In this document: positions 8,993 through 14,118 of the stretch, in pieces
Numbering within the stretch: the stretch's first letter is position 1
How the letters are laid out: each line of letters starts with the position of its first letter
Origin: Sphingomonas sp.
GTDB taxonomy: Bacteria > Pseudomonadota > Alphaproteobacteria > Sphingomonadales > Sphingomonadaceae
Direction: 5' to 3'
Length of the DNA stretch: 64,000 nucleotides
Assembly (NCBI GenBank): GCA_003248865.1
Contig: QFPK01000005.1
Coordinates: forward strand, 95,465 to 159,464
Notes under the pieces: generated by a model
Databases searched by the model: none
What the model was told of the DNA's origin: nothing
What the model saw: the letters and a program-made list of their open reading frames with translations, nothing else
Made by a program: the position numbers and the translations under genes

Positions 8993-9472
8993 GTGACTGC
9001 ACTGGTCGGGATCATCATGGGAAGCGTCTCTGACTGGGAGACGATGCGCCACGCCGCCGAGGTGCTGGAAGCGCTGAAGGTGCCGCACGAGGTGAAGGTG
9101 GTCTCTGCCCACCGCACGCCGCGCCGCATGGTGGCCTATGCCGAAAGCGCGGCGGATCGCGGACTGAAGGTGATCGTAGCGGGCGCCGGCGGTGCCGCGC
9201 ACCTGCCGGGCATGGTCGCCAGCCTGACGCCGCTGCCGGTGCTGGGCGTGCCGGTGCAATCTGCCGCGCTGTCGGGGCAGGACTCGCTGCTCTCCATCGT
9301 GCAGATGCCGGCCGGGGTGCCGGTGGGCACGCTGGCGATCGGCAAGGCCGGGGCCATCAATGCCGGGCTGCTGGCGGCCGCCATCCTCGCCACCAACGAC
9401 AGCGAGCTGGCCGGGCGGCTGCGCGCCTGGCGGCAGGCGCAGACAGACGCGGTCGCGGACTCACCGCTATAA
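8993..9472 (+). CDS. purE: 5-(carboxyamino)imidazole ribonucleotide mutase
   Basis: 159 aa with [15 protein letters not shown] and [14 protein letters not shown] start. Confidence 0.93.
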
Positions 9473-10545
9473 TGCCGATCCTGCCGGGCGCGACCATCGG
9501 AATCTTGGGGGGCGGCCAACTGGGCCGGATGCTCGCGCTGGCGGCCGCGCCGTTGGGATATAAGGTGCATGTGTTCGCGCCGGAAGGCGAGGCAGTCGCC
9601 GTGGATGTGGCTGCCGCAGAGACTCGCGCCGATTACGGTGACGAGACCGCACTGGCGGCCTTTGCGGGCCGGTGCGACGTGATCACCTACGAGTTTGAGA
9701 ATGTGCCATCCGCCAGCGTCGCCTTTCTGGAGGCGCTGAAACCGGTGCGGCCGGGGCCCAAGGCGCTGGACGTGGCGCAGGACCGGCTTTCGGAAAAGCA
9801 GTTCGTGGAAGCGCTGGGCGGGCGGACGGCGCCGTTCCGTGCGGTGGAGACGCTGGCGGAGCTGGAGACGGCTCTGGCGGAGCTGGGCACGCCCGCCATC
9901 CTGAAGACACGGCGTTTCGGTTACGACGGCAAGGGGCAGGCGCGGATCACGACTCCGGCGGACGCGGCGGAGGCCTTTGCGTCTCTGGGTGGCAAAGGGT
10001 TGATTCTGGAAGGGTTTGTTCGGTTTGAAGCCGAATTCTCCATTCTGGTCGCCCGCTCCCCGCTGGGGCGCGAGGTGCATTATCCCGCCTGCCTGAACGA
10101 GCATGAGGACGGCATCCTGGCGCGCACCACGGTACCTGCTGCCGGCATCGATCCGGCGCATGTGGATGCCGCGACCGCGCTGGTGGTGCGGATCGCCGAT
10201 GCGCTGGATTATGTGGGCGTGCTGGCCTGCGAATTCTTCGCCACTCCCGCGGGGCCCCTGTTCAACGAAATGGCGCCGCGGGTGCACAACAGCGGCCACT
10301 GGAGCATCGAAGGCGCTGCCACGTCTCAGTTCGAACAGCATGTGCGCGCGATCTGCGGCCTGCCGCTGGGGCCGGTGGAGTTGACCGCGCCGCTGGTGGA
10401 GATGCTGAACCTGCTGGGCGACACCTCGGCAGAGTGGGGGCGCATCCTGGCCGATCCGACCGCGCATCTGCACCTCTATGGCAAGGCGGACGCCGTGCCG
10501 GGGCGCAAGATGGGGCATGTGACGAGGCTGTTGCAGGCCCCCTAG
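9472..10545 (+). CDS. purK: 5-(carboxyamino)imidazole ribonucleotide synthase
   Basis: 357 aa ATP-grasp protein (GILGGGQLGRM, YEFENV, FNEMAPRVHNSGHW). Overlaps the purE stop. Confidence 0.92.
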   Translation: MPILPGATIGILGGGQLGRMLALAAAPLGYKVHVFAPEGEAVAVDVAAAETRADYGDETALAAFAGRCDVITYEFENVPSASVAFLEALKPVRPGPKALDVAQDRLSEKQFVEALGGRTAPFRAVETLAELETALAELGTPAILKTRRFGYDGKGQARITTPADAAEAFASLGGKGLILEGFVRFEAEFSILVARSPLGREVHYPACLNEHEDGILARTTVPAAGIDPAHVDAATALVVRIADALDYVGVLACEFFATPAGPLFNEMAPRVHNSGHWSIEGAATSQFEQHVRAICGLPLGPVELTAPLVEMLNLLGDTSAEWGRILADPTAHLHLYGKADAVPGRKMGHVTRLLQAP

Positions 10546-10591
10546 CGACGGCCGGTGGTTGTGATATCCTCTCGGTCGGGAGGATTGAACC

Positions 10592-11194
10592 ATGCGCATC
10601 TCACTTGTGCGCGGATTGCTGCCCGCAGCCCTGCTGGCCGCCGCCGCCATTCCCGCCGTCCTCGTTTCCTCGGCCGCCAATGCAGCCGTTTCCATCCTGG
10701 GCGGAAATTCCTCCGGGCGGGATTGTTACTTGGCGGCAGAATTCAAGCGCGAGACCCGCGCCAGCCTGGATGTGTGCAGCCGGGCGCTCGAACTGGATTC
10801 ACTGACTAGGCGCGATCGTGCCGCGACGCTGGTGAACCGGGGCATCGTCTATATGCAGTCGCGCGATCTGGAAAATGCCGTTGCCGATTACAAGGCCGCC
10901 ATCGCCATGAACCCGGGGCTTGCAGAGGCGCACATCAACCTGGGAATCGCCCTGCTGCATCGGGGCGGGCAGGATCAGGCCGCCATCGACATGCTGACCC
11001 GCGCGCTGGATATGAAGCCGGAACGGCCGGAAGTTGCGCTGTATACGCGCGCCATGGCCTATGAGATGATTGGTAACGCCAAGGCTGCCTATGAGGATTA
11101 CTCTGCCGCCGCCGCGCTGGCGCCGGACTGGAAAGAGCCTGCCGAGCAGCTGAAGCGCTTCTCTGTGGAACGGCGAAGGACAGCGCGGGGGTAG
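10592..11194 (+). CDS. secreted TPR-repeat protein
   Basis: 200 aa with a signal-peptide-like N-terminus and several TPR-like A/Y/N repeats. Confidence 0.65.
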   Translation: MRISLVRGLLPAALLAAAAIPAVLVSSAANAAVSILGGNSSGRDCYLAAEFKRETRASLDVCSRALELDSLTRRDRAATLVNRGIVYMQSRDLENAVADYKAAIAMNPGLAEAHINLGIALLHRGGQDQAAIDMLTRALDMKPERPEVALYTRAMAYEMIGNAKAAYEDYSAAAALAPDWKEPAEQLKRFSVERRRTARG

Positions 11195-11240
11195 CAGCTG
11201 GGCAAAGAGGGCGTTTTGGTGTGCGGCGCGCGATGCGCCG

Positions 11241-12821
11241 TCAGTTCGTGATTTCCATCTCAAGCTGCGAGAAGTCCCCTCGTGCCAGGGCATCTCTGTC
11301 GATCGTCAATACAATCGTGCACAAGTCTCCCCAGATCCAGCCCTGCATCTTGCTTGTTGCCAGTTCCAGCAGGACTTCCGTATTCGTGTCAGGGCCGAGC
11401 GGCGTATCCACAAAGCCCAGCGGAGCATGTCCCATTGCGCCGTAAAAGCACTTGGCGTCCTGGTTCCAGATCGTTTCCATCCTGTTTCGCATTTCTGGGC
11501 GCAGACGGGCTGGATTTTGAGTGTAGGCGTTCAGGATATGCCAGTATAATTGTGATGAATATGGGCGCCACCACCAATTCTGAATAGATGATGATCTTTC
11601 GGGGACATCCCTTAGAAAATAATGAGAAATATTAAAGTTCTCATAATTATTTTCGTCTCTTCCGATTAATTCATAAGAATAATATTTAATATTATTTATT
11701 TTATTATAAAAAATTGATAACTTTTCTTCATTAAAATTCGTTGTATATGTAGAAATAAGTTTATTTAATTTTCTAAATTCATTCAAACTATTTTGAGATA
11801 TTTTCTTAGAGTTATTCAATAATTCAATATTCTCTGGATAAGAATTTACGGAATAAGATAGATGATTCATGATTTCTGCCTGTTTGGCAAAAAAATCCTC
11901 CATGATTTTCAACAGGGATGATAGGGAATTCTCGTCAAACGGCTGCATTTCCGGATTTTCGAGATTTGGCTGAAAGCCGCTCCACACATCGCCAATCTGA
12001 CCTGCGCCAAGGGAATCTTGCCGACCCTCTTCGATCTTCACCGGCCAGCGGGGAAGCTGCTCGTCCCCTGAGAAGGCGGCCTCCTTTTCATACCAACTGG
12101 CCCATGACGCACCAATCTGTCCCGGTCCGTTTTGCTCTTCGATTTCTCCCTTGAAATGAAGGGCTGCCGGCTCGGCGGTTTCGGGGTGAAGGAAAATCGC
12201 CAGCCAGCCTTCTCTTGGCCCGATCCCTGACCACAAACCCTTGGGAAGGCTTGCCAGATTGATCTGGCAGAGGAAACGCAGCGGCGTGTCGCCCATTTGC
12301 GGCCAGGGTGTTTCCCTGGGCAGTTTCGGCTTGCCGCCGAACCAGCTGTCCGTGTCGTCGAACCGGATCGGCACAATTGGTGTCAGCCTTGCGACGGGGC
12401 GATCCGCGTCCCACGGTCTTTGTTCAACGGCGAATGTTTCAAGCTGCCGTTGAATGAACTCGTTCCGGAGTTTCAGATCAGCTGCCGAGGGTTTCGCGTT
12501 GGTGGCCGAGCCGGGCTGGGAACCGACTGCATTTTGAGCCCTGTTTTGCGGAATGCTTCCAGCCCGCTGTGCGGCGTTGAGAAAGCGCATCATGCCCCAT
12601 GCCGCGACAGCGCCCATAACGAACAGCACTCCTGCGGCGAGCGGAGCGCCCAACGGACCTACCAGCGTGACATCAACGCCGGTTGCAATTGCGCGGAGGA
12701 GGGCCGCCTTAAACCCAGTCTTGCCGGGTTTCATCAAGACCGGGAAGCCATTGAGAAGGTCTAAGGCGATAATCCAGAAAAACAGCGCAGGCGATAAAAT
12801 CACAAAGATACGCTTTAACAT
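11241..12821 (-). CDS. membrane-anchored DUF1963 (YwqG-like) domain protein with an AT-rich in-frame insert
   Basis: Has N-terminal TM helices. DUF1963-like N-half (FGGKPKLP...LRFLCQINLASLP) and C-terminal WGD motif (GWIWGDLCTIVLTI) are present. ATG at 12821 is preceded by TGGAG, with an alternative GTG at 12845. GC is clearly lower than in neighbours. Confidence 0.65.
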   Translation of the reverse strand: MLKRIFVILSPALFFWIIALDLLNGFPVLMKPGKTGFKAALLRAIATGVDVTLVGPLGAPLAAGVLFVMGAVAAWGMMRFLNAAQRAGSIPQNRAQNAVGSQPGSATNAKPSAADLKLRNEFIQRQLETFAVEQRPWDADRPVARLTPIVPIRFDDTDSWFGGKPKLPRETPWPQMGDTPLRFLCQINLASLPKGLWSGIGPREGWLAIFLHPETAEPAALHFKGEIEEQNGPGQIGASWASWYEKEAAFSGDEQLPRWPVKIEEGRQDSLGAGQIGDVWSGFQPNLENPEMQPFDENSLSSLLKIMEDFFAKQAEIMNHLSYSVNSYPENIELLNNSKKISQNSLNEFRKLNKLISTYTTNFNEEKLSIFYNKINNIKYYSYELIGRDENNYENFNISHYFLRDVPERSSSIQNWWWRPYSSQLYWHILNAYTQNPARLRPEMRNRMETIWNQDAKCFYGAMGHAPLGFVDTPLGPDTNTEVLLELATSKMQGWIWGDLCTIVLTIDRDALARGDFSQLEMEITN

Positions 12822-12948
12822 TACAAAATTGCTCCAGTGACCCACTCTTTATTATGGCGCACGCTATGGAATTTAAATGTGATTGCAAGCAGGAAGGAGT
12901 TTTTTTCCGAGCAATGAGGTGTGGCCGTTTGCGCTTTGCACAGCCCTG

Positions 12949-14004
12949 TCAGGGCCGCCAGATAAGGCCGATGTCCGGTGGAATCCTGTTCGCCAGCAGG
13001 CGGTTGAAGCTGTCGGTGTAGCCTTGCGGGCCTTGCACGGTTTCCAGATGCAGCCAGTTGGGGGTGGTGGCGAGGAAGGCGGCCATGCTGCTGTTCAGTT
13101 CGGCGTCGAAGGCTTGCTGGCCGATTTCGCGGATGCGGTTGGCCCAGTGGGTGGGGGCGAAGAAGAGGGCAGGTTGTGGGCCTTCCAGCGGTTCGTCGGC
13201 GGGGGCGGCCCAGTCCGTGTCGCCGACGATGTGACTGGCGCTGAGCGCCTTCAGGTGGCGGTGGAGGCGGGCCTTGAGGGCGCCGTTGCCGGCGAAATCC
13301 ACGATGACGCAAGGGATTGCGGGATCGAGGCTTTCCAGCGCGTCGTAGGTGAGGACCTGCGCGTAGAAGCCTGTCTGTTCGACGAAATCCTTGTTGGCGG
13401 ATGAGGTGAGGCCGATGGCCGGGTGGCCGGCGCGCTTCAGATTATAGGCTGTGGCGAGCGCCGTCTTGGCGGAGGCGCTGGTGATGAGGATGGTGCGGCC
13501 CGCGCCGATGTCCCCCTGCAGGCTTTGCGCCAGCACGAAGCCGGTGCCGTAGAGCGGCTGGAACAGGGCGATGAGCGGCTCCGCTTCGGGGGTGACGCCG
13601 GGGGTGGGGCGGTAGCTGTTGTAGACCGGGGCGAGGCCAAGCCGGTGCGCGCTGATGTCGGAGAAGCCTTCGCCCTTCGGTGGGCCGGGGCGGAGTTTCA
13701 CATGGGTGGCGGAGGGCCAGTAGCCGAACAGGCGGCTGCCTTCCACGACATGCGGGCTGTGGCTTTCGCTGACAGTTGCATAGCCCCAGACCGGTACAAT
13801 TCCCCAGGCCGGGTCCGATGCGGGGAAGAAATCCCAATAGTTGAGCGGCGGCCCGCCCATAACGGCATAGGTAATGTTATTTGATGTGAGGGCGGCCAGA
13901 TCGATTCGGGCAATGATGTCGCCTTCGTCCGGAGAGAGGTCTAACGCCTGAATTTGTTGTTTCGACAGATCCGCGCGAGCAATTTCAATGGAATATTGCG
14001 ACAT
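12949..14004 (-). CDS. DUF2855-family protein
   Basis: LNYWDFFP...WGIVPVWGYATV...GYWPSATHVKLRP pattern. ATG at 14004 is preceded by GGAGAGGGAG (the ORF as listed extends to 14061). Confidence 0.7.
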   Translation of the reverse strand: MSQYSIEIARADLSKQQIQALDLSPDEGDIIARIDLAALTSNNITYAVMGGPPLNYWDFFPASDPAWGIVPVWGYATVSESHSPHVVEGSRLFGYWPSATHVKLRPGPPKGEGFSDISAHRLGLAPVYNSYRPTPGVTPEAEPLIALFQPLYGTGFVLAQSLQGDIGAGRTILITSASAKTALATAYNLKRAGHPAIGLTSSANKDFVEQTGFYAQVLTYDALESLDPAIPCVIVDFAGNGALKARLHRHLKALSASHIVGDTDWAAPADEPLEGPQPALFFAPTHWANRIREIGQQAFDAELNSSMAAFLATTPNWLHLETVQGPQGYTDSFNRLLANRIPPDIGLIWRP

Positions 14005-14118
14005 TTCGATGAACTCCCTCTCCGCCACTTGAGAGGATAGCCGAAATGCGGGAAGCTGCATCTGCGGATTGGATCAGGGGTGAATCGAAATCCGCAGGCT
14101 TGTTGCAGGAGCGGGGCG

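Follow-up and report, generated by a model that had tools for sequence, protein, structure and literature searches.

The stretch of DNA analysed here, to which we refer as the window, comprises 64 kb with a guanine plus cytosine (GC) content of 65.9% and stems from a metagenome-assembled genome (MAG) labelled Sphingomonas sp. On the minus strand it contains a gene for a putatively membrane-anchored protein of the YwqG/DUF1963 family (TYPP superfamily), and within this gene some 300 bp turn extremely rich in A and T with the reading frame kept open. The relevant features, with the evidence on which each was delimited, are the following:

11241-12845, minus strand: gene for the putatively membrane-anchored YwqG/DUF1963 (TYPP superfamily) protein (open reading frame list, Pfam, AlphaFold and Foldseek).
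12561-12818, minus strand: hydrophobic helices at the N-terminus, about residues 10-95, that probably anchor the protein in the membrane (helices predicted at 2-23, 37-57 and 59-87 in the numbering of the 526-residue product).
11946-12398, minus strand: N-terminal half of the TYPP/DUF1963 domain, residues 150-300, of ordinary composition with a GC content of about 0.6 (invariant columns and GC profile).
11832-11966, minus strand: N-terminal-side transition zone (halo), a graded edge with a GC content of 0.385 (five-segment model and 30-nt GC profile).
11613-11912, minus strand: AT-rich block encoding the conserved insert subdomain of the subfamily, residues 312-411 (change points, codon use, collinearity and profile score).
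11424-11612, minus strand: C-terminal-side halo, residues 412-474, with the conserved WW..Y..LYW..NAYT and third codon positions shifted towards A/T (GC at the third codon position, GC3, of conserved residues, and change points).
11244-11423, minus strand: remaining C-terminal half of the TYPP/DUF1963 domain, residues 475-534, of ordinary composition (invariant columns M471-P475, W503, G523 and N534).

The open reading frame at 11241-12845 encodes 534 residues from a GTG at 12845, and the public annotation gives 526 residues from an ATG at 12821, in an entry named 'hypothetical protein DI568_05740, MAG: Sphingomonas sp.' (P0001), to which the gene product is a 100% match. The start codon is ambiguous between 12821 and 12845: NCBI and ENA both use the ATG at 12821 (MLKRIF...), and the closest homologue (P0002) aligns from that methionine. 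The protein has one continuous match to the Pfam family PF09234 (DUF1963), covering residues 167-528 and model positions 1-210 of 216, with a score of 65.3 bits (gathering cut-off 23; E = 1.3e-17). The AT-rich segment is thus flanked by the two halves of a YwqG/DUF1963 domain, as a reading made from the letters alone (the sequence-only reading) had proposed. NCBIfam contains no model for the gene product, and because a search of the PDB by sequence returned zero matches, a fold search was needed to reach a protein of known structure. An AlphaFold model of the protein, built on 29 sequences (mean predicted local distance difference test score, pLDDT, 83; predicted template modelling score, pTM, 0.72), was compared with the PDB by Foldseek, and the sole match at E ≤ 0.001 was 1PV5, the YwqG protein of B. 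subtilis (E = 9.1e-6, probability 1.0, TM-score on target 0.49). This match assigns the model to the TYPP fold, which is characterized by two stacked five-stranded beta-repeats, as found in 1PV5.

DUF1963/YwqG was placed by Burroughs and Aravind in 2014 (PMC4275035) in the TYPP superfamily (TSR4, YwqG, PDCD2L, PDCD2), whose members share an all-beta unit that is present in duplicate and bears GGxP and Q motifs. Some members of the YwqG family are fused to transmembrane helices, and for the bacterial members a role in protein-protein interaction or a chaperone-like role was proposed from context only (PMC4275035). In the homologue alignment the residues W168-F169-G170-G171-K-P173, which include the GGxP motif, and Q194 are invariant; the glutamine of the second repeat is present in the query (MQGWIWGD) and variable among the homologues (Q, V or M). 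From its N-terminus the protein consists of three hydrophobic helices, a low-confidence linker (about residues 96-120; pLDDT < 50 at 88-106 in the 526-residue numbering), a helix, the first beta-half bearing WFGGKP and Q194, a large insert, and the second beta-half bearing MGHAP and MQGWIWGD. The MGHAP motif occupies residues 471-475, just upstream of the C-terminal part (475-534) that contains MQGWIWGD and that has a GC3 of 0.70-0.76.

The composition of the gene changes profoundly in the large insert. In sliding windows of 150 bp the GC content drops to 0.16-0.18 at about 11625-11850, as compared with 0.55-0.70 in the flanks, and a maximum-likelihood change-point fit puts the block at 11613-11912 (residues 312-411), with a GC content of 0.21 against 0.56 in the remaining gene. 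A model with five segments fits better than this simple block (twice the log-likelihood difference is 17.3 for 4 extra parameters), and it resolves an N-side halo (11832-11966, GC 0.385), a deep core (11613-11831, GC 0.164) and a C-side halo (11514-11612, GC 0.434) between flanks of 0.58. The compositional edge at 11612/11613 is sharp and the edge on the N-side is graded; GC3 declines and recovers smoothly over about residues 280-470, with the centre of the trough at about 11700-11750. The block is the sole 300-bp stretch of the 64 kb with a GC content below 0.42 (the next lowest reaches 0.49) and lies 8.9 standard deviations below the window mean (z = -8.9). The deepest dip over 300 bp in related alphaproteobacterial loci, of which 493 kb were scanned, amounts to 0.19 below the locus mean, as compared with 0.45 here. 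The sequence-only reading had described an AT-rich, in-frame segment with an abrupt switch in composition at this place; both the sliding windows and the change-point fit agree with it, the peptide it quoted is correct, and the depth of the switch turns out to be the most extreme among the loci compared. Imperfect inverted repeats also occur inside the block (arms at 11612-11636 and 11685-11709, 76% complementary, and a 14-nt near-palindrome at 11681-11700), which probably arose by chance, given such AT-rich DNA.

The reading frame runs uninterrupted through this segment. Over the 333 bases at 11586-11918 the coding frame contains 0 stop codons and the other five frames contain 9, 10, 9, 9 and 17, and the probability of an open frame at the composition of the block is 5e-5 by shuffling and 2.3e-5 by analytical calculation. 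The argument of the sequence-only reading that such an open frame speaks for selection on the protein is borne out by these values. Moreover, 28 of the 39 hydrophobic positions are retained in the core (p = 9e-8). Reading frame, length and hydrophobic pattern of the block are therefore under purifying selection.

The shift in composition itself acts on the DNA and not on the amino acids alone, because all codon positions are equally AT-rich, the synonymous choices run against those of the host and silent sites in the flanks are affected as well. The GC content at the first, second and third codon positions (GC1, GC2 and GC3) is 0.18, 0.21 and 0.16 in the block, versus 0.61, 0.47 and 0.65 in the remaining gene. 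The synonymous choices in the block are opposed to host usage (AAT 14 : AAC 2, TAT 8 : TAC 0, TTT 4 : TTC 0), and the block contains codons that are rare in the host: four TTA (a codon found at 0.37 per 1000 in host genes), along with two each of ATA and AGA, the latter being the sole arginine codon. On average, the codons of the block have a frequency of 9.3 per 1000 in the host, and those of the remaining gene one of 23.9 per 1000. At the level of the protein, the fractions of the residues F, Y, M, I, N and K (FYMINK) and of G, A, R and P (GARP) are 0.54 and 0.06 in the query core, as compared with 0.26-0.29 and 0.18-0.20 in the orthologue cores, and the remaining query protein is unchanged at 0.21 and 0.29. 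Selection on the amino-acid composition alone was considered as well and rejected in view of the strongly A/T synonymous choices.

The silent sites of the flanks were inspected at codons for which the query shares its amino acid with two or more of the three clade-A orthologues. At these conserved codons GC3 is 0.70 (74/105) in the far flanks, 0.38 (9/24) at residues 412-474 in the C-side halo (p = 0.004 versus the far flanks) and 0.42 (14/33) in the two halos pooled (p = 0.006 versus the far flanks). The orthologues do not display a dip in GC3 at the same conserved halo codons (p = 0.2). The AT shift thus extends to the silent sites of conserved flanking codons, since GC3 in the halos is depressed and the orthologues lack the dip.

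The relation of the block to the family was assessed with 29 protein homologues of the query, the nearest of which besides the query itself is 45-47% identical overall, and with the DNA of 73 genomic relatives plus a Logan contig. These 73 relatives belong to the alphaproteobacteria or to other Proteobacteria, and the GC content of their loci ranges from 0.45 to 0.70. The homologues (among them proteins of Bradyrhizobium, Mesorhizobium and Parvibaculum) are collinear with the query and gapless across residues 300-430 in alignments of 17 and of 28 homologues, and F371 and D397 are invariant inside the AT-rich part. The stretch that aligns to query residues 325-410 measures 84-86 residues in the eleven closest relatives, and 86 residues in the query as well as in the three clade-A relatives. 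In the relatives this stretch has a GC content of 0.45-0.66, which is 0.01-0.10 below that of their own remaining gene; in the query it is 0.19 (GC3 0.16). A hidden Markov model (HMM) that was built from the orthologue cores only scores the query core at 24.2 bits, as compared with -0.1 ± 1.4 and a maximum of 10 for 2000 shuffled sequences, and because this score is far above that of the shuffles the query core is homologous to the insert of the family. The sequence identity between the query and its nearest relative (L001) is 61% in the N-domain, 20% in the core and 67% in the C-domain (residues 425-534), whereas the corresponding values between L001 and two other relatives (L002 and L003) are 66-69%, 69% and 72-73%. 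Judged from these alignments, the divergence of the core is specific to the query lineage.

The core is predicted to be well ordered, with two long helices at 297-324 and 329-360 that form a helical hairpin, a short third helix at 365-376 and a beta-hairpin at 379-388/394-402 (526-residue numbering), at a pLDDT of about 89-97 that derives largely from the alignment. In the model the insert (helices 297-376, hairpin 379-402) follows a strand at 259-266 and precedes the C-terminal strands, a placement that would fit the description of the insert site in PMC4275035. As far as can be read from the sequence comparisons, the block is the subfamily's own ordered insert of helices and a beta-hairpin, recoded in AT-rich codons, and not a foreign insertion. 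The suggestion of a domain insertion made in the sequence-only reading therefore had to be abandoned: the homologues are gapless and equal in length, and the query core is homologous to theirs. An inserted domain, an intein and a mobile element were likewise rejected on the basis of the gapless collinearity and of a repeat search that found no direct repeats flanking the block.

The frames of four orthologues are broken, at about 3760-3860 in L012 (Bradyrhizobium sp. SZCCT0428), at 3723-3788 in L020 (Mesorhizobium temperatum SDW018), at 4053-4161 in L046 (Aminobacter sp. AP02) and at about 4440-4446 in L054. The breaks in the first three of these fall in the same insert region (query residues ~338-390), and the break in L012 resembles a stop codon with compensating frameshifts. 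The disrupted frames could represent sequencing errors or pseudogenes. Shallow dips in GC3 were found at the position of the query's trough in two orthologues: in L001 (0.43-0.47 at residues 355-399, versus about 0.6-0.73 elsewhere) and in L007 (0.27-0.30 in the part aligned to 370-414, versus 0.5-0.67 elsewhere). Together with the clustered breaks these dips hint, with little statistical weight, at a tendency that is specific to this position.

The explanation that we tentatively prefer, and that we hold to be quite possible though somewhat short of probable, is that the block was recoded in place by a local A/T pressure at the level of the DNA, which acted on the part of the protein that is most tolerant to substitution. 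A sustained pressure of this kind, centred locally at about 11700-11750, would recode the segment where it is situated; it would run furthest where the protein tolerates substitutions, and the conserved flanks would change at silent sites only. Such a pressure might stem from a local escape from the forces that keep the genomic GC content high, or AT-rich DNA or RNA might itself be selected. A likely consequence would be slower translation, caused by the clustering of about 90 host-rare codons and by a probably unstructured, AU-rich portion of the mRNA, and the DNA of the block would become a candidate target for AT-binding nucleoid proteins.

Various observations weigh against recoding in place. 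We know of no bacterial mechanism that creates an AT-directed zone of 300 bp inside one gene, and for its cause the argument therefore has a gap. At 11612/11613 the edge is as abrupt as one would expect of a recombination breakpoint. Against the profiles of clades A, B and C the core reaches 23.6, 21.6 and 15.1 bits, so that its clade affinity is ambiguous, and the flanks clearly prefer clade A; the indel pattern of the core is that of clade A. Only one lineage is known to carry the patch, and with a nearest relative that is 45-47% identical overall no intermediate states are available. The silent-site test on the C-side rests on 24 codons and the N-side halo by itself is not significant (5/9, p = 0.45). 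Among 27 orthologues the difference in GC3 between core and remaining gene is small and mixed in sign, and the dips in L001 and L007 would not survive a correction for multiple tests. At sites that are unanimous in clade A the changes from GC to AT comprise 42 transitions and 28 transversions (p = 0.22); because there is no transition-biased memory of a GC-rich ancestor, a change in place is indistinguishable from a long residence in an AT-rich genome. The A/T retained at such unanimous sites is attributable to second codon positions, where the class of the residue is conserved. Finally, the two assemblies in which the sequence is found (see below) may derive from the same reads.

The main alternative is a recombination event in which the insert segment was exchanged for its homologous counterpart in a gene of the same family, carried by an unsampled organism or element of very low GC content, so that the patch has kept the composition of its donor. 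We consider this somewhat unlikely, although the abrupt switch on the C-side at 11612/11613 and the exact collinearity and homology of the patch are what a homologous replacement would give. Similarly, the FYMINK-rich and GARP-poor composition, the AT-rich codons and the exclusive use of AGA for arginine resemble the proteins of AT-rich genomes, and the core is so saturated with change that no clear clade affinity is left. Yet the search for a donor was fruitless throughout: phmmer with the 111-residue core against 1.84 billion (1.84e9) protein cluster representatives retrieved only the protein itself, scans of metagenome contigs with back-translated peptides (including junction-adjacent peptides) were empty, as were both the back-translated peptide scan and the family-profile scan of IMG/VR and a tblastn search of plasmids and phages, and the loci of the 73 relatives do not go below a GC content of 0.45. 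(A word-index protein search with the segment alone was also empty; we disregarded it, since it missed even the parent protein, which a local phmmer run scores at 266 bits.) By the relations of Muto and Osawa, the GC1 of 0.18 and GC2 of 0.21 in the block are below the average coding values even at a genomic GC content of 25-30%, so that the donor would have to be extreme. In addition, an in-frame and length-neutral recombination between sequences so dissimilar is mechanistically hard, and a cut-and-paste event predicts neither the graded edge on the N-side nor the synonymous AT shift in the flanks. The mosaic origin from a low-GC donor that the sequence-only reading envisaged is thus favoured by the sharp C-side edge but, given these last observations and the lack of a donor, unsupported on the whole. 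A chimeric assembly, in which reads of an AT-rich organism were joined into a contig of the Sphingomonas MAG, is very improbable. The source is a MAG, the patch occurs in one lineage only and the orthologues carry the segment at ordinary GC content, which the sequence-only reading would have taken as a pointer to chimerism or contamination. However, the patch is in frame, has the length of the family and is homologous to it, so that the partner in a chimera must be a true homologue, of which none is known; sequences of 20% and 58% GC would share no k-mers that could bridge them; and the edges are graded with halos of intermediate GC. Moreover, contig k141_57752 (2945 bp, with a MEGAHIT-style name) of ENA analysis ERZ27312620 (L075) encodes the exact protein and is 100% identical to positions 10358-13302 of the window, with the AT block in the middle of the contig and both junctions crossed; it covers the whole gene as well as the neighbouring TPR gene. 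Given this second assembly, and given that the patch has the right frame, the exact length of the family and homology to it, an assembler-specific chimera is unlikely, and although the orthologues literally have the ordinary GC content in question, the conclusion that was to be drawn from it is weakened accordingly.

Recoding in place could also be driven by function. According to this special case, the AT-richness itself is selected, as a nucleation site for a silencer like MucR or H-NS or as a brake on translation or mRNA stability that is made of rare codons and AU-rich sequence, and the subdomain is just kept foldable; taken by itself we regard it as quite unlikely. The sequence-only reading, too, had raised a regulatory role of the patch as a possible target of MucR/Ros-type silencers. 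The AT shift is present at the DNA level wherever the protein permits it, including the silent sites of the conserved flanks, the trough is centred and graded, and the TTA, ATA and AGA codons are rare in the host, all of which would suit such an element. In alphaproteobacteria MucR is well established as a protein that silences AT-rich DNA (PMC9410896, PMC8857273), and the block is far more AT-rich than its genome (GC 0.21 versus 0.66), as a target of silencing should be. Phased A-tracts and abundant TpA steps have been discussed as features of MucR targets (PMC9410896), but in the block AA/TT shows no periodicity at 10-11 bp, its power staying under the mean of the shuffles, and there is no surplus of TpA steps (35 versus 42 expected). 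Neither are promoter-like (sigma-70-like) sites enriched in the block (2 versus 1.7 ± 1.7 expected); a terminator scan was likewise negative or at chance level, Rfam gave zero family matches for the block, and the orthologues manage without such an AT block. A tblastn search with an Agrobacterium Ros query found no Ros/MucR gene in the 64-kb window, which is a weak test and one that is uninformative for the remaining genome. Selection for a function of the DNA or RNA is perhaps, though improbably, the cause of the recoding in place. When it is taken together with a second option, namely a localised AT-directed process of mutation or repair that has not been described before, the pair (either AT-rich DNA or AU-rich mRNA selected in situ, as a silencer nucleation site or rare-codon brake next to the subdomain, or else that process) is still unlikely. 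Drift is supposed in the reading that the insert has lost its function and moves towards an AT-rich mutational equilibrium, as a pseudogene in the making. The core is indeed hyper-diverged in the query lineage only (identity 0.20 versus 0.61-0.67), all three codon positions are equally AT-rich and 3 of the 4 disrupted orthologues are broken in the same region, but against this stand the 111 codons with 0 stops where about 10 are expected (P = 2-5e-5), the absence of indels with respect to clade A despite many A/T runs, the hydrophobic pattern that was kept (p = 9e-8) and the downstream C-terminal domain, which is still 67% identical to that of the nearest relative. Drift would also leave unexplained why only these 300 bp escaped the forces that maintain GC. 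We give decay hardly any credence, and a pseudogene was rejected in view of the open frame, the absent indels and the retained hydrophobic pattern.

Compositional mosaics and AT islands are known as a kind; what is unusual here is that the island is sub-genic, homologous, fold-preserving and without a donor. The protein resembles other YwqG/DUF1963 (TYPP) proteins in its Pfam match, in the fold of 1PV5, in the GGKP and Q residues, in an insert that would lie between the beta-repeats at the preferred site of the superfamily and in its putative N-terminal transmembrane helices. It differs in that the alphaproteobacterial subfamily has a large insert (~125 residues) that is predicted to be ordered as helices plus a hairpin, and that the query lineage alone encodes this insert at 16-21% GC. 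The insert of the eukaryotic TSR4/PDCD2L proteins is a compositionally biased segment at the standard insert site of the superfamily, as the query segment would be; it was described, however, as low-complexity and is unaligned with the bacterial members, whereas the query segment can be aligned position by position with the GC-normal orthologues, and an ordered structure is predicted for it.

The mosaic genes for penicillin-binding proteins (PBPs) of Streptococcus and Neisseria arise through homologous recombination between species, with identifiable donors, DNA differences of up to ~20-25% and sharp breakpoints. They share with the present gene an internal block, in frame and homologous, that stands out sharply from the remaining gene in sequence and composition; unlike in the PBP genes, there is no donor here, the divergence of the protein is about 80%, one edge is graded and the flanks have a synonymous halo. 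Very AT-rich genomes (those of insect endosymbionts and of Plasmodium) display FYMINK enrichment and GARP depletion throughout the proteome, with segments rich in N, K, I and Y. The amino-acid shift and the synonymous codon choice of the query block are similar, but they are confined to ~300 bp in a genome of 66% GC. In the bldA control of the GC-rich Streptomyces, single TTA codons act together with a regulated tRNA. The query block similarly uses codons that end in A or T and are rare in its GC-rich host, TTA among them, and unlike in the bldA system ~90 rare codons are consecutive. The AT islands that attract xenogeneic silencers (H-NS, Lsr2 and Rok; for MucR see PMC9410896 and PMC8857273) are similar in that a few hundred bp far exceed the genome in AT content, here in an alphaproteobacterium; the targets of such silencers are usually whole acquired genes or promoters, whereas the block is a sub-genic, in-frame part with near-normal flanks and with neither A-tract phasing nor an excess of TpA.

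Anomalies in the composition of bacterial DNA are normally read as horizontal transfer of whole genes, and the present anomaly is sub-genic, in-frame, homologous, constrained by a fold, graded and without a detectable donor. If the block was recoded in place, it would constitute a natural experiment on how far the composition of DNA can shift with the protein fold kept, and it would raise the question whether the forces that maintain GC (selection or biased gene conversion) can give way, or be overridden, at a single place. If the block is instead a patch from an extremely AT-rich donor, recombination would have bridged an unusually large sequence distance. Either way, the gene lends itself to clean tests of AT-binding silencers and of the effects of rare codons within a gene, with the practical limit that it represents a single lineage that is known from metagenome assemblies only.

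Some further features of the gene and its surroundings were observed. Among the close homologues, the N-terminal block of helices and linker (12486-12818 in the window) is common to the query and P0002/L001 (L001 158-1774) only, and the orthologues of the Bradyrhizobium type (~412 residues) are without the N-terminal hydrophobic block; distant members from Aminobacter, Pararhizobium and Erythrobacter (loci L009, L013, L015, L016, L046 and L054) align from near the query N-terminus. The region 12750-12950, which comprises the first codons of the gene and the spacer of 103 bp to the upstream DUF2855 gene on the same strand, is moderately AT-rich (GC ~0.41) and is probably the promoter and 5' region; a scan for consensus promoters made no call within it. 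The neighbouring genes are ordinary chromosomal ones, encoding an M14 peptidase, PurK, a TPR protein, a DUF2855 protein, SnoaL, Hsp20 and AlaS. Outside the AT block the GC3 of the gene is 0.65, as compared with 0.75-0.82 in its neighbours (9472-10545, 10592-11194 and 12949-14061), and the clade-A orthologues have a similar gene GC3 of 0.68-0.69. The whole gene may therefore be a mildly atypical and possibly acquired accessory gene amid housekeeping genes.

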